Origin: a virus
Length of the DNA stretch: 64,000 nt
Direction: 5' to 3' (one strand)
Virus record (IMG/VR): IMGVR_UViG_3300014205_000222
Positions 23,547-33,514 of this stretch are shown here, in pieces (position 1 is the stretch's first letter; each line of letters begins with the position of its first letter). The notes under the pieces were generated by a model. That model ran no database searches. It saw only the letters and a list, made by a program, of their open reading frames with translations, and was not told the DNA's origin. Made by a program: the position numbers and the translations under genes.

Positions 23547-23825
23547 ATGTCTGAAAAAAAAGTTCCTGATATATTGACGTTTATTTTTGTTGGGTTTCTC
23601 GGGTTTTACTTTACAGGTTCAATGATACATCATTACAACTTTTCCGCAAGCGGTCTGCCATATGGAATTATTTTTCTTTTGGTGTGGGGGGCATGCATGT
23701 TTACAATGATTGTAACATTCAAACATGCATTTTTTGTAGAAAAACAAGATACAATGTATTCGACAATGAAAAAAGATTTTTTGGCATTAATATCAAAAAT
23801 TAAAAAAACACGAGTAAAAAACTAA
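23547..23825 (+). CDS. small 3-TM membrane protein (92 aa)
   Basis: ORF track; only + gene in this stretch. Confidence 0.4.
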   Translation: MSEKKVPDILTFIFVGFLGFYFTGSMIHHYNFSASGLPYGIIFLLVWGACMFTMIVTFKHAFFVEKQDTMYSTMKKDFLALISKIKKTRVKN

Positions 23826-24520
23826 AATTTATTGTAATTGGCATCCGCATAATCTTCACATGGTGTGCAGTTTAAAATCAGCGGGCACTTTTTTGTTACC
23901 GAACCCGATGGATAATACGTCTCATAAAATTCTGGTGTAAAATATACCGGAACGCCATCATATAAATTATATCGTGTCATATTTCCAACATGTAACGTTG
24001 CGTTTCTAGCCGCGCCATATTTCAACTCGTCAAATGATACCACTCTCCCATCTTGTTCCCAGTATGCAGAGAATGTCGGGTCATAATAATGCCACGTATC
24101 GTTATAATATACTTCAATAGCAACATGACCATAATCTCCACATATAGATATTAGATGCGATGGGATGTTTTGTGTCGTAAGCATTGCAACAGATAAAATA
24201 GAAAAATCCCCACACAAACCGCGTTTATATTTTAATATGTTATCGGGGTTTGCATAAAAATCAGTTTTATTCACAAGAATGTTTCTATCAATCCATGTCA
24301 TATATTTAATTATTTTATCGTGTGGAGAATCCGAAGATTTAACAATCATATCTGATAAAACTTTCGTTTCTCTTGTAATTACAATATTCGAATAGTTTAA
24401 TGGGTTTTCGGGATCGTCTCCTTCCATATAGGGAAAATCCGGGAAGATAAGAATATAAAAGAGACAACTTATTCCTATAACCAGCCCAACCCAAAACAAT
24501 ACATCATAAATCTTTGTCAT
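23822..24520 (-). CDS. transglutaminase-like cysteine protease domain protein, membrane-anchored
   Basis: Cys-His-Asp triad spacing: GLCGDFSILSVAML … GHVAIEVYY … WHYYDPT; N-terminal TM. Confidence 0.6.
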   Translation of the reverse strand: MTKIYDVLFWVGLVIGISCLFYILIFPDFPYMEGDDPENPLNYSNIVITRETKVLSDMIVKSSDSPHDKIIKYMTWIDRNILVNKTDFYANPDNILKYKRGLCGDFSILSVAMLTTQNIPSHLISICGDYGHVAIEVYYNDTWHYYDPTFSAYWEQDGRVVSFDELKYGAARNATLHVGNMTRYNLYDGVPVYFTPEFYETYYPSGSVTKKCPLILNCTPCEDYADANYNKF

Positions 24521-24536
24521 AATAACAACCCAATTT

Positions 24537-30734: not shown

Positions 30735-30986
30735 CTATTTTTTCAACCCGTCGATTCCTGCCTGTAACCGCAACAATTGTGTTATAACATAGCCCAATGC
30801 AACTATATTAGTCAACCCAATTATAATCGAAACTATCATAAGGTTTGTAACACCAAATGATGCAAGATTCGCAATGAACGCATGATATATCATTATCATT
30901 GCCACAAGACCAAACAATATCACAAGAATTATCGTAGATGATAATCCAGCAATAAATGAAAACAACTTATCTCGATTGTCATTCAT
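30735..30986 (-). CDS. small 3-TM membrane protein (83 aa)
   Basis: ORF track. Confidence 0.45.
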   Translation of the reverse strand: MNDNRDKLFSFIAGLSSTIILVILFGLVAMIMIYHAFIANLASFGVTNLMIVSIIIGLTNIVALGYVITQLLRLQAGIDGLKK

Positions 30987-31072
30987 GATATATTAATATA
31001 TATCTATAATAATATAATCTTTTCGCGAAAAATAAGAAAAAACCAAAAAATTGTTTAAAATTTAAAAAATTG

Positions 31073-33514
31073 TTATTCTGGTTTCCTTACAATCAAGAAA
31101 GAAACCACACCAAGACCAATCAGCGCAATTAACGCACCAAAACCCGGAGATTTCGGAGTTTCCGTTGGAACCACAGTTGGGTCAGGGGTTATGACCGGAG
31201 TTGGTACTTCGGTTACTACGGTTGTCGGCTGCGTTGTCGGCGGGGTTGTTGGAGGCGGTGTTGGTGTAGGAGTTGGTGTAGGAACAAACGCTACCAAGTC
31301 AAATACGCTGCTTCCAGACACGGAAACAACAATACCCGTAACCGAAACACGGTATTCGTCTACCTTAAACCCATCGGTATCAAACTCATACACAAACTTA
31401 TTGGCAGACTGTCCACCATCGACAACCTTCACAACGCTGCTGCTACCGCTAAACGTTCCCGGAGCAACTTTGTCGGTCGGTTTGAACGAAGATGAAAGCA
31501 CTTCTACAAGAATTTCATTCCCAACTGCAAGATTTGTGGTTCCAGTTACAGTAACCATATCTCCAACAGCCTTGCGCGGGATATTTGTGATGCTAATGTA
31601 TGGAGCTTCTATAATGAAACTGTTCTGAACATACAAATCGTCAACCGATGGATCGTTAATTGCATTTATTAAAGCAGTTGCTGCTTCAGACGACTGAAGG
31701 CTTCCAGAACCCTGTACCTTGAACTTTGTGTTCCCATATACAGGATACGTTCCTACAACAAGATCTCCGGATTTCCACACGTCAAACTGGTTGTTATACA
31801 TTGGGTGTTGAACAACAACATAATACTGACCATCTGCAAGATTGCCGGTATCCCCGCGTGTCAGCTTAAGTTCGTATGACGCATCATCATCAACAGAAAC
31901 CTGCTTTACCAACACATAATTCTTACCGAAAATCCAAACCATTACACCAGATGCTGAGTCTGTTCCTGCAGAACCGGCGACGATAATCTCATCGCCCCGT
32001 GCTGCGTTTTTAGGAGTAACTTCGGCACTCAACGTTGGCTTGCGAACAATAATCGATACTGTTGCATACTGTATGCCCTGTAAATTATCCCTGTTCCGAG
32101 GCTCGGAAACAGCATATACAGTATATGTTCCAGAATCAATTCCTATAGCGTCCGTTCTCCACTTGTAATCATACGAATCGTCTTCGCGGACATCTGCATT
32201 AACCATGTTTGAAACATTGATTGGTTCACGCGGCGAATCTAACTTTCCGCCAGCATTTGGAAGATTCGGTCCAGTTATAAAGAAATACGTGCTTTCAGTT
32301 TCAGTGTTTACACCAGCAAGTACAATCTCATCGCCAAGATAATATGAATTTTTATCGGTTACCAACGAGAGTTGCCCGGTGCTTACAGTCACTGTAACCT
32401 CACCCGATTTATACTCGCTGCCAAACTTATTTTCGGCACGAATGGTGTATCGTCTGTCCTGTGTGTCGCTGTACGTCTGGAAACCAATAGTTCTCTTACC
32501 AGAAGAATCTGTAGTTACCGTTGCAAAATATTTTGCATCACCGTTTGGAACACTTGCATCAATACGCTTACCACCCTCGGTAATATACCCCGGGTTTGCT
32601 CCAATCGAAACACCATACTGGTTCGATATAATTACAGGGGCCGGGTCTGTCTGTGTAGATTTTACAAACACATGATATTCCGTGTTTGGCTGACCAGTTA
32701 CCGTAACCGAAAATGCACCTCCACGGGTTACACTTGCAACATTCGACTCGACACGAATCCCTTCGGATGCAATAAAGAATGTTCTGACTACAGATTTTAC
32801 ATCCAAACTATTAACCCCGCACGTCGCATGAACCTTATATTCTCCGGCAGGGTATAACCGCGCAGAACCAGAACGAGCATCCAAATTCCATGCATCATTA
32901 GCAACTTTGTTTGCCCAATAAAACAGGGAACCAGTTAACGGAACGTTATCGATACTGCGATCACCATTTATTGTCACGAGTTTGTTATATACAGAACCAC
33001 TCGGTGCGGCAACCCTGATATCAAAATCAAACGCCTCTGTTGAATTTACATTCCGCGCGCGAATAAGATGCAGGTTAGACTCAACCCTGAAATCAACGCG
33101 CGATGTTCTGGCAATGCTTTCTCCGTCAACACGTTTGTCTGCCGGAATATCCCAAATCAGAACGTTAATCTGCGGGTTTTCGACATAGAATGCAACTCCG
33201 TGCGAAGTGCTACCATCCCACCGATACCATGCATCTGTTCTTCCAGTGAACGTTGATGGCGAAACATAGAAATCTGTCTTGCCAGTAACATCAACGACTC
33301 GCCCCGGCGAATCTATAGACGGATTCGAACCAGATGGGAACCATGCAATTTTATCATAACTGCCTACGGCAGCAGATATATCCAAACTTTCTTCCCCGAT
33401 GAACACCGTTCCCTCTTGCGCAACAGTGCTATAAGCTCCAGCAGAAACCGGAGCAGCTAAAGCAAAAGCCGCGAGGATCAGTGCAACAACCATAATTGAA
33501 AAATTCGCTTTCAT
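31073..33514 (-). CDS. large secreted cell-surface protein with Ig-like/beta-rich repeats, PT-rich linker and PGF-CTERM archaeosortase sorting signal
   Basis: Start at 33514 (GGTGGGAG SD, signal peptide MKANFSIMVVALILAAFALAAPVSA); C-terminus …PTPTPTPTPPPTTPPTTQPTT…PKSPGFGALIALIGLGVVSFLIVRKPE = PGF-CTERM; listed ORF start 33646 over-extended. Confidence 0.7.
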   Translation of the reverse strand: MKANFSIMVVALILAAFALAAPVSAGAYSTVAQEGTVFIGEESLDISAAVGSYDKIAWFPSGSNPSIDSPGRVVDVTGKTDFYVSPSTFTGRTDAWYRWDGSTSHGVAFYVENPQINVLIWDIPADKRVDGESIARTSRVDFRVESNLHLIRARNVNSTEAFDFDIRVAAPSGSVYNKLVTINGDRSIDNVPLTGSLFYWANKVANDAWNLDARSGSARLYPAGEYKVHATCGVNSLDVKSVVRTFFIASEGIRVESNVASVTRGGAFSVTVTGQPNTEYHVFVKSTQTDPAPVIISNQYGVSIGANPGYITEGGKRIDASVPNGDAKYFATVTTDSSGKRTIGFQTYSDTQDRRYTIRAENKFGSEYKSGEVTVTVSTGQLSLVTDKNSYYLGDEIVLAGVNTETESTYFFITGPNLPNAGGKLDSPREPINVSNMVNADVREDDSYDYKWRTDAIGIDSGTYTVYAVSEPRNRDNLQGIQYATVSIIVRKPTLSAEVTPKNAARGDEIIVAGSAGTDSASGVMVWIFGKNYVLVKQVSVDDDASYELKLTRGDTGNLADGQYYVVVQHPMYNNQFDVWKSGDLVVGTYPVYGNTKFKVQGSGSLQSSEAATALINAINDPSVDDLYVQNSFIIEAPYISITNIPRKAVGDMVTVTGTTNLAVGNEILVEVLSSSFKPTDKVAPGTFSGSSSVVKVVDGGQSANKFVYEFDTDGFKVDEYRVSVTGIVVSVSGSSVFDLVAFVPTPTPTPTPPPTTPPTTQPTTVVTEVPTPVITPDPTVVPTETPKSPGFGALIALIGLGVVSFLIVRKPE

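Follow-up and report, generated by a model that had tools for sequence, protein, structure and literature searches.

Why would a mobile genetic element carry the gene for an archaeal wall protein? The S-layer is the only cell wall of most Methanomicrobiales, a surface that viruses must recognize and cross. The question is raised by the virus record IMGVR_UViG_3300014205_000222, a stretch of 64,000 nucleotides (nt) to which we refer as ‘the window’. An earlier note on this DNA had proposed an envelope-remodeling cluster of five genes, encoding a secreted, S-layer-like surface protein, a GT2 enzyme fused to a GtrA-like domain, a polytopic GT-C transferase, a membrane transglutaminase-like protein and a DUF5131 protein. 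All five genes are present, each of them on the minus strand, and the assignments stood up to comparison with profile models and predicted folds. To these, the present analysis adds the likeness of the GT2 fusion to dolichol-phosphate-hexose synthases, a Thr/Pro-rich spacer within the S-layer protein as a candidate sugar acceptor, the accessory nature of the transglutaminase-like gene, and the pairing of the S-layer gene with GT-C across a lineage of elements. Tentatively, we take these elements for a hitherto unrecognized lineage of large (~160–180 kb), tRNA-rich viruses of Methanomicrobiales, which may long have passed on an S-layer protein of their own by vertical inheritance as a core gene, in most cases along with dolichol-linked glycosylation, and may routinely re-tile and re-glycosylate the wall of their hosts.

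An S-layer glycoprotein and a glycosylation operon

We placed the start of the S-layer gene (31073–33514, minus strand) at the ATG at position 33514, which matches the N-termini of homologs and yields a full-length protein of 813 amino acids (aa). The mechanical open reading frame (ORF; 857 aa) begins at a TTG at 33646, and public gene callers return either 832 or 813 aa. The resulting N-terminus, MKANFSIMVVALILAAFALAAPVSA, is a Sec signal peptide that fits the signal peptides of all homologs. Membership in the S-layer glycoprotein class, as claimed by the earlier note, is borne out by the equivalog model NF041431 (MEMAR_RS02690 family S-layer glycoprotein), which scored 762 bits against a cutoff of 600 and aligned residues 49–855 of the 857-aa ORF to model positions 3–818 of 819. 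DUF3821 (PF12863, domains D1–D2) was matched at 8.9e-54 over model positions 1–201 of 204 and is followed by further Ig-like domains. At the extreme C-terminus lies a PGF-CTERM sorting signal, PGFGALIALIGLGVVSFLIVRKPE, which consists of the PGF motif, a hydrophobic helix and a basic tail and is recognized above cutoff by both PF18204 (22.7 bits; cutoff 18.8) and TIGR04126 (26.2 bits; cutoff 24.5). The linker that precedes the PGF motif, described earlier as rich in Pro and Thr, corresponds to a spacer (approximately residues 739–789) with 16 Thr and 16 Pro in ~51 residues. The whole protein contains three N-X-S/T sequons, one of which falls within the signal peptide. A sequence search of PDB with the S-layer protein gave no match. 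Since the family matches pass curated thresholds, chance is not a concern for the gene identities.

The same full-length architecture is found in the S-layer glycoproteins of Methanomicrobiales. Mhun_2263 of Methanospirillum (M.) hungatei, which forms a hexagonal lattice, combines DUF3821 (D1–D2) with six Ig-like domains, a ~50-aa Pro-rich spacer and PGF-CTERM (PMC11641113). Judged by its sequence, the window protein is a member of this family, yet not a cellular gene: it sits on a mobile element rather than on a chromosome and falls into a separate clade of mobile-element and metagenome sequences (see below). Among the window ORFs scanned, there was no match to an exosortase or archaeosortase, and the archaeosortase ArtA would therefore have to be supplied by the host.

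On the same strand, the genes for the DUF5131 protein, a 74-aa protein, GT-C, GT2-GtrA and the transglutaminase-like protein follow one another closely—two junctions overlap (16 and 20 nt) and two leave short gaps (13 and 16 nt)—and most likely form one operon. Of the single cluster envisaged by the earlier note, proximity and shared strand hold, whereas the S-layer gene and the operon each form a transcription unit of their own, ~3 kb apart, with small genes—two of them on the plus strand (29814–30718)—in between. The first operon gene (27307–28029, minus strand) encodes a radical-SAM-like DUF5131 protein (PF07505, 7e-39; phrog_2045, 3e-50), belonging to a family common in phages. It bears the motif C19-x3-C23-x2-C26 (CX3CX2C), and its end overlaps the next gene by 16 nt; in contig L171, a syntenic relative discussed below, its position is occupied by another radical-SAM gene. 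The 74-aa protein that follows (27098–27322, minus strand) has two membrane helices and is kept directly upstream of the GT-C gene in relatives, at 65% identity in L171 and L172 and 36% in L090. We regard this protein as a possible small subunit of the glycosylation system.

The GT-C gene (25627–27084, minus strand) encodes a PMT_2/GT39-like protein of 485 aa that matched PF13231 (PMT_2) with 58 bits (cutoff 26.1; 2e-15) and has at least ten hydrophobic segments and a small C-terminal extracytoplasmic domain. Its AlphaFold model, built on a 51-sequence alignment, adopts a confident GT-C fold (pLDDT 94, pTM 0.92). Searching PDB with this model in Foldseek returned STT3 (3e-9), ArnT (5e-8), AglB (1e-7), PglB, ALG9/12 and Pmt4 (1.5e-5); a PDB search with the GT-C sequence gave no match. 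Among 51 homologs, D48, E49, R97 and a YSQEAR motif are conserved, with the loop-1 pair Asp48-Glu49 retained in at least 90%. Cellular homologs occur in Methanomicrobiales (33–37% identity) and carry the NCBI name glycosyltransferase family 39. Of the Pfam families put forward in the earlier note for this enzyme, PF02366 (PMT) matches GT-C homologs but not the window protein itself. Membership in the Agl23 family was rejected (29.5 bits against a cutoff of 126).

The GT-C gene is overlapped by 20 nt by the start of the next gene (24537–25646, minus strand), whose 369-aa product joins a GT2 domain (PF00535, 8e-24) to a GtrA-like four-helix membrane domain (PF04138, 2.7e-20; residues 252–368). 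This protein aligned end to end with the dolichyl-phosphate mannose (Dol-P-Man) synthase of Pyrococcus furiosus (5MLZ; residues 11–369 to 25–373, E = 8.9e-44), a type-III Dol-P-Man synthase (DPMS), such that both the GT2 part and the four-helix domain are covered. Its best PHROG was phrog_841 (‘GtrB-like O-antigen conversion’; 3e-20), and the GtrB structure 5EKP was matched at 5e-7. In the 5MLZ alignment, the residues that bind the phosphate of Dol-P (the SRY arginine, Arg131, Ser135 and the KIL lysine) face the segments GSRF, FDRKVLS and GQKAL, by which Arg, Arg, Ser and Lys would be retained (numbering not set against the structure). The donor and metal motif of type-III DPMS reads DADxQHPP (PMC12992685); with DADLAQDY in this place, the window protein retains DAD but not QHPP and fails the strict motif. 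Going by its sequence, it is a polyprenyl (dolichyl)-phosphate hexose synthase, with no specific sugar assigned by its motif. The arrangement is reminiscent of DPMS/Ppm1 acting with PMT/GT39, in that the genes of a DPMS-like synthase and of a PMT_2/GT39-like GT-C with the loop-1 DE motif form a pair with translational overlap. It differs in that the window GT-C lacks both a PF02366 match and a MIR domain and that the fold search places STT3 and ArnT above Pmt.

The last gene of the operon (23822–24520, minus strand) encodes a 232-aa, membrane-anchored transglutaminase-like protein of the papain fold (PF01841, 1e-9, 38.7 bits against a cutoff of 23; PF04473, 2e-8). It has an N-terminal membrane helix and a Cys-rich C-terminus, and its catalytic domain probably faces outward. 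In the alignment, a triad of Cys103, His132 and Asp147 falls within conserved G-x-C-G-x-F and GHV...WHYYDPT motifs, with one homolog carrying Arg in place of Cys. The structural model (pLDDT 67) gave weak PDB matches to TgpA, transglutaminases, PNGase and PeiP (best E ~7e-3; TM about 0.3–0.36). With TgpA, PNGase and PeiP/PeiW, the protein shares PF01841, the Cys-His-Asp triad and the N-terminal anchor, and the structural matches are too weak to place it in a subfamily. A word-index search of 5.8 billion proteins returned five homologs. One 49%-identical homolog is encoded on contig L173 (JASEKR010003621.1, positions 1–16000) between GT1/GT4 genes, in a cluster that also comprises AglB/STT3, an ABC-2 exporter pair, WbqC, a formyltransferase, an ATP-grasp enzyme and a pilin-N protein. 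This context connects the family with glycosylation of the surface instead of lysis, and points to a conserved, uncharacterized role of this rare family in the surface glycosylation of archaea. As the gene is absent from L171, the closest large relative in synteny, we consider it accessory.

A lineage of mobile elements and its S-layer clade

Does the S-layer gene belong to the element, or to a host genome? The region lies on a mobile element of archaea that is large (genome size, at least 181.6 kb) and rich in AT (window GC content, 0.38). Independent assemblies of this element exist as contigs of 39 kb (Logan), 64 kb (ENA), 68 kb and 181.6 kb (JGI; 67,987 and 181,586 bp). The 64,019-bp ENA contig is 99.996% identical over 22.5 kb at an offset of 3,988 bp, and the window extends beyond its end. 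We found no housekeeping gene in the 64-kb window. The flanks on both sides of the S-layer region are virus-like, and nearly all genes in the 1–23 kb arm are orphans.

S-layer proteins with 62–64% identity to that of the window are encoded on short contigs that share its flanking 175-aa and 83-aa genes. Members of the next tier (41–52% identity) occur in contexts with genes for T4-type RNA ligase, DUF1064, MT-A70, ThyA, Dam, PrimPol-DUF3987, AAA_24, DUF669, RecT or histones; for the nearest homologs, all ten inspected contexts were mobile-element-like. The 163,185-bp contig L171 (Ga0394872_0000109) is collinear with window positions 11–35 kb. Both L171 and L090 share with the window, in this order, PCNA, 175-aa gene, S-layer gene, 83-aa gene ... 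74-aa gene, GT-C and GT2-GtrA (identities to the window of 52% and 42%, respectively, for the S-layer protein, 48% and 38% for GT-C, and 56% and 42% for the synthase). Across syntenic relatives, the dN/dS ratio was 0.12–0.19 for the S-layer gene, 0.18 for GT-C and 0.14 for GT2-GtrA, with dS being saturated; all three genes are under purifying selection in this lineage.

The two small neighbors of the S-layer gene are likewise conserved. Directly upstream, a 175-aa protein with a Lys/Arg-rich tail (33661–34188, minus strand) is syntenic in L002, L171 and L090 (36–40% identity) and had no match in Pfam, NCBIfam or PHROGs. Directly downstream, an 83-aa protein with three membrane segments (30735–30986, minus strand) holds the same place beside the S-layer gene in L002, L003, L171 and L090 (40–59% identity) and may be an export or anchoring partner, or holin-like.

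In a neighbor-joining tree of 105 sequences, 28 proteins known from mobile elements or metagenomes only formed one clade (93 of 100 bootstraps), set apart from ~76 cellular sequences, and the window protein grouped with those of L002, L003 and L171 in 100 of 100 bootstraps. Every full-length clade member has retained its signal peptide, its Thr/Pro spacer and PGF-CTERM or a close PGM variant; a truncated copy, P0003/L002, is missing its C-terminus.

How close do cellular genomes come? DUF3821 has been described as exclusive to Methanomicrobiales (PMC11641113). Scanning one genome per GTDB species, we identified 347 relatives of the S-layer protein, the best 80 of which were nearly all from Methanomicrobiales, the exceptions being contigs binned in Patescibacteria, Bacteroidota and ANME-1 metagenome-assembled genomes (MAGs). 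Methanospirillum genomes encode several S-layer paralogs, and the homologs in Methanomicrobiales genomes share 33–44% identity with the window protein. No homolog in GTDB genomes exceeded 46% identity, and the 46% match itself lies on a mobile-element-like contig misbinned in a Patescibacteria MAG. Two contigs with S-layer homologs carry such labels in GenBank, namely L008 (JBAZKI010000010.1; binned ‘Patescibacteria’) and L038 (JAKQEI010000002.1; ‘Bacteroidota’). L008, whose genes include a UDP-GlcNAc 2-epimerase, an AAA ATPase, a C5 methylase and a Dam of the phage type, probably represents a related mobile element that was assigned to the wrong bin on account of its composition.

Collections of viral sequences did not return the lineage. 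A tblastn search of INPHARED phages with the S-layer protein gave no match, and pattern-based scans of IMG/VR (with the S-layer protein, with the primase, and with alignments of the S-layer family and of a conserved 225-aa protein) found no member. Full-text searches of the literature yielded no description of virus-borne DUF3821 S-layer proteins; an S-layer gene on an ANME-associated viral contig has been mentioned in passing.

We then asked of the relatives whether the S-layer gene and GT-C keep company. With the GT-C profile, a gene within 10 kb of the S-layer gene was detected in mobile-element loci alone, and in none of ~158 other S-layer loci that served as negative control; a JGI metagenome scan with the S-layer alignment, which returned mostly loci of the cellular type, provided this control of adjacency. 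In L006 and L088, contigs from a more distant branch of the S-layer clade, a GT-C-like gene adjoins the S-layer gene directly (a weak Pfam match to PMT_2 in L006, no Pfam match in L088). Beside it lies a glycan cluster of ~10 kb (L006, 12533–22379; L088, 12532–22358) that contains an NDP-sugar transferase and epimerase, a TylF O-methyltransferase, GT1, GT2, a radical-SAM/SPASM protein and a second GT2 together with PMT_2. The surface glycan made by these elements is probably more complex, and methylated. The pairing of the S-layer gene with GT-C is an old, conserved trait of the whole element lineage.

These data also bear on a case that the earlier note had named as a refutation, namely that the region is an ordinary S-layer locus of the host; we extended it to a joint S-layer and glycosylation locus and, alternatively, to a recent and functionless capture of host DNA. 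The protein does pass a cellular equivalog model, and the S-layer gene has a GC content of 0.45, above the 0.38 of the window. However, cellular S-layer genes exceed their flanks in the same way, and the excess thus reflects amino-acid composition; for this reason, and because the syntenic relatives are merely 52–64% identical, we rejected the recent capture that the GC excess had suggested. Syntenic relatives at 42–64% identity indicate long residence in the lineage, and dN/dS ratios well below 1 argue against a functionless copy. A host locus is further at odds with the absence of housekeeping genes from 64 kb, with virus-like flanks and orphan genes, with the 30 tRNA genes and phage-type replication module described below, with synteny in contigs of 163–182 kb, and with a best GTDB homolog that itself resides on a mobile-element-like contig. 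We regard this explanation as largely refuted and highly improbable.

Further features of the replicon

Several features of the window are archaeal, including PGF-CTERM, a histone, PCNA, PTH2 and the archaeal-type DPMS. Alongside these, Pfam and PHROGs matches revealed a phage-type replication and recombination module (54149–59750, minus strand) with a PrimPol-DUF3987 primase-helicase, a Cas4-like exonuclease, a DEAD/ResIII helicase and a Sak4-like AAA_24 ATPase, the latter sharing 44–49% identity with tailed-phage proteins; a PCNA-like clamp is also encoded. A large virus infecting a methanogen of the Methanomicrobiales is the most likely identity of the element. The histone-fold protein (39393–39728, plus strand; precomputed matches to PF00125/PF00808) has counterparts of the same fold on the related or associated contigs L089 (6645–6815) and L173 (16126–16380).

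Thirty tRNA genes form an array in a single orientation (36585–52742, minus strand). ARAGORN detected 28 of them and Rfam all 30, adding those at 43252–43325 and 44962–45038. The set includes four tRNAs for Leu and two each for Ser, Arg, Gln, Val, Met and Gly, besides others. Amid the array, genes for a CCA-adding enzyme (41598–43028, plus strand) and a Ro60/TROVE protein (45946–47472) were identified through Pfam and PHROGs. Further RNA- or translation-related genes are PTH2 (~36.2–36.6 kb), near the array, and RlaP (21019–21837); a metallophosphatase gene also lies in or near the array. Very large phages typically carry such a toolkit for translation and RNA repair; in an archaeal element it is unusual. 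The window additionally encodes a 514-aa SPFH/Band-7 membrane protein (49099–50643, minus strand) and a protein with an ART-PolyVal ADP-ribosyltransferase domain (51401–52000, minus strand).

At around 10000–12000, the coding strand flips from plus (1–10 kb) to minus (10–64 kb), resulting in convergent transcription, and the GC skew changes sign (from +0.24 to about −0.15). This switch could mark a replication terminus or the boundary of a genome arm. The only strong tandem repeat in 64 kb, a 12-nt unit present 11.8 times at 59948–60089, lies in frame within the ORF at 59743–61038 and gives rise to a (Q)QAPQ repeat in a 431-aa protein that faintly matches Gp2.5-like single-stranded DNA-binding proteins. 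The strand and GC-skew switch together with the in-frame repeat brought a Borg-like element into consideration; we rejected it, given a single tandem repeat in 64 kb and the phage-like replication genes.

Proteins without family assignment but with long Lys/Arg/Thr-rich tails are encoded at 29814–30718 (plus strand), 33661–34188, 35492–36259 and 53333–54112 (all minus strand). The two plus-strand proteins (29814–30718) share an AYAVG(K/I)WLA(A/K)RK motif and look paralogous. These tailed proteins may be DNA- or RNA-binding proteins specific to the lineage. At the right end (61961–63981, minus strand), two adjoining surface proteins have a C-terminal module in common, made up of a beta-rich domain and three membrane helices and terminating in ...GGGY. 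The larger protein, with three PKD domains and a VPTPTPTPT linker, has an ORF that probably extends past the end of the window. Its PKD part is 30–35% identical to genes that lie ~6–9 kb from S-layer paralogs in Methanospirillum genomes (L024–L028, L049). Both surface proteins are candidates for further GT-C substrates, or for adhesins.

Possible roles of the S-layer gene in infection

What, then, might the element gain from these genes? The account toward which we lean, if hesitantly, is a surface conversion of the infected cell that masks receptors and excludes superinfecting viruses, as an archaeal analog of gtrABC. In this scheme, the synthase would load a hexose onto dolichyl phosphate at the cytoplasmic face of the membrane. 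Its GtrA-like domain would help present the dolichyl-linked sugar at the outer face, and the corresponding domain of type-III DPMS has been proposed to translocate Dol-P-Man (PMC12992685). GT-C would then move the single sugar to an extracellular acceptor, either the Thr-rich S-layer spacer (of the viral and perhaps the host protein) or existing glycans. The viral S-layer subunit, for its part, would be exported, cleaved and lipid-anchored by the host’s ArtA before co-assembling into the host lattice. S-layer paralogs of M. hungatei have been proposed to form mixed hexamers, with spacer and PGF-CTERM anchoring the lattice (PMC11641113), which renders co-assembly of viral and host subunits plausible. 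As an outcome, the receptor would be masked or altered, superinfecting viruses would be excluded, and progeny would be kept off infected cells and debris.

Within the S-layer protein, the Thr/Pro spacer would be the most plausible acceptor, since two sequons outside the signal peptide compare with 16 Thr in the spacer and since GT-C is PMT_2/GT39-like. Segments rich in Thr and Pro are typical sites of O-mannosylation. Alternatively, and by analogy with Haloferax, surface N-glycans might receive the sugar: there, AglD and AglS complete the S-layer N-glycan with a last mannose, which Dol-P-Man donates on the outer face.

The scheme shares its logic with the gtrABC loci by which phages convert the serotype of Shigella and Salmonella, and more broadly with three-component systems (PMC11127046). 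In either case, a GtrB-like GT2, a GtrA-like module and an adjacent GT-C are borne on a mobile element, and the alteration of the surface would be the window system’s counterpart of serotype conversion. Differences are that GtrB and GtrA are fused in the window protein, as they are in archaeal type-III DPMS; that the likely acceptor is a protein; and that the element also supplies a candidate for this acceptor, the S-layer subunit. Because the host is archaeal, dolichol would serve as carrier and there is no O-antigen. Nor were integrase or lysogeny genes seen in the window, placing the system outside the O-antigen and bacterial-lysogen setting that defines gtrABC. The enzyme pair is thus comparable in its presumed working to gtrABC, and to DPMS with PMT, but is no member of the gtr family.

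The same S-layer protein could instead serve egress. A viral subunit made late in infection would then be a misfitting tile that poisons the lattice and weakens the wall, with the transglutaminase-like protein as wall protease and the 83-aa protein as holin. There is a precedent in viruses of sheathed archaea (Methanospirillum, Methanolinea), which encode sheath-like (SH-like) proteins with a proposed function in sheath disruption for egress (PMC11576556). SH-like and viral S-layer proteins are both secreted homologs of a building block of the host envelope, are widespread in their virus lineages and could co-assemble with host subunits. The window system nonetheless involves a DUF3821 S-layer protein and not an amyloid sheath protein, and its copies are full-length, detectable by sequence and linked to a glycosylation system. 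A role in egress would also suit the conserved, holin-sized mini-protein with three membrane segments directly downstream of the S-layer gene, the long branches in the viral S-layer clade, and the transglutaminase fold, which is that of the pseudomurein endoisopeptidases of methanogen viruses (PeiP being among the weak fold matches). Yet the viral proteins keep all working S-layer parts: ~70 alignment columns are invariant across viral and cellular S-layer proteins, and divergence is evenly spread, with no concentration at interfaces. Moreover, lysis would leave the conserved linkage to a Dol-P-sugar and GT-C system unexplained, and the transglutaminase-like gene is missing from L171, its only homolog of known context lying in an AglB glycosylation cluster rather than in a lysis cassette. 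Egress, the role proposed for SH-like proteins, comes second in our ranking, as the chief rival of surface conversion but a rather unlikely function of the S-layer gene.

Another possibility is that the element merely maintains the envelope, in the manner of auxiliary metabolic genes, by supplying the top-expressed wall protein, along with the sugar donor system required for its maturation, while the host is shut off in a long infection; the cell would thereby stay intact up to release. A full-length S-layer gene that is conserved lineage-wide and held under purifying selection is compatible with this, and the 30 tRNAs, the CCA-adding enzyme, PTH2 and the RNA-repair genes suggest a takeover of translation. 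Signals for expression would fit as well. The region upstream of the S-layer gene (33515–33660) is AT-rich and contains a TATA-like box, CTTATATATG, and a Shine-Dalgarno-like GGTGGGAG. Directly before the latter, a perfect 8-bp inverted repeat (CACCGGGT ... ACCCGGTG) could form a structured 5′ leader that controls expression; scans for bacterial-type promoters and terminators were not above shuffled sequence. However, a copy kept for maintenance should be near the host protein, whereas the viral protein is 33–44% identical to cellular ones and belongs to an old clade of its own. An infected, non-growing cell would also need little new S-layer. We deem maintenance unlikely.

Several points weigh against a surface-converting virus. 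No integrase was found in the window, where the only recombinase match was an ORF at 19018–19551 (minus strand) whose similarity to resolvase-type serine recombinases is confined to their N-terminal catalytic domain, with a hydrophobic segment before it. Taken together with the tRNA-rich genome, this hints at a lytic lifestyle, for which the benefit of a wholesale re-tiling of an S-layer with slow turnover is less evident. The glycosyltransferase operon is not co-transcribed with the S-layer gene. Clade members L005, L007 and L089 have no GT-C gene in the available DNA, and surface glycosylation is hence not obligatorily linked to the S-layer gene. At the level of the GT-C model, the fold search does not separate PMT-, ArnT- and oligosaccharyltransferase-like enzymes, and the acceptor could be a lipid or a glycan in place of the spacer. 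As the donor motif DADxQHPP is kept in part (DADLAQDY), the transferred sugar is not assignable. On the whole, our reading of function draws on sequences, models and comparison. A last point concerns the particle. No capsid, portal or terminase gene was found among the window ORFs (the larger ones searched singly, those of the 1–23 kb arm as concatenated sets and against Pfam only), nor in ten unannotated ORFs of relatives or the parts of relatives that were fetched. With these genes not found, the element could be a giant plasmid-like replicon. For the same reason, we infer the viral nature of the element rather than consider it shown: of the earlier note’s proviso that the element be viral, its being a mobile element stands, and its being a virus is probable.

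Capsid genes of a conventional kind missing from the scanned ORFs of the window and from ten ORFs of relatives might alternatively mean that the S-layer protein is itself part of the virion, as a lipid-anchored, glycosylated outer coat or spike of an enveloped or membrane-containing particle. The core-like conservation of its gene in the lineage would agree with this, as would the PKD-domain surface proteins with Thr/Pro linkers at the right end of the window. Nevertheless, the scan covered ~64 kb out of at least 181.6 kb, and missing capsid genes mean little at this coverage. The replication and recombination module is of the tailed-phage type, as seen in the 44–49% identity of its Sak4-like ATPase to tailed-phage proteins. 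Genomes of 160–180 kb with tRNA arrays are likewise typical of head-tailed viruses, which have no membrane for the lipid anchor of PGF-CTERM. A virion component is thus quite improbable. Among the three functions offered in the earlier note, the synthesis of a virion glycoprotein emerges as the least likely, while S-layer modification or superinfection exclusion is better supported.

If the element does convert the surface of its host, this would mean that archaeal viruses rewrite host surface identity—in this case the protein lattice itself—as temperate phages do with the O-antigen. It would be the first virus to supply the main structural wall subunit of an archaeal cell, its nearest precedents being viral sheath-like proteins (PMC11576556) and the S-layer gene on an ANME-associated viral contig. 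The DUF3821 S-layer family would, if the finding holds, no longer be exclusive to the cells of Methanomicrobiales, and the S-layer gene would be usable as a marker for a lineage of large viruses of which neither the IMG/VR scans nor the INPHARED search found a member. The compact pair of Dol-P-sugar synthase and GT-C, with a candidate acceptor encoded nearby, would offer a tractable system for archaeal O-glycosylation, which is poorly understood. To our knowledge, almost nothing is known about receptor use, superinfection exclusion and egress in methanogens, and the S-layer gene and its enzymes would provide a testable handle on all three.

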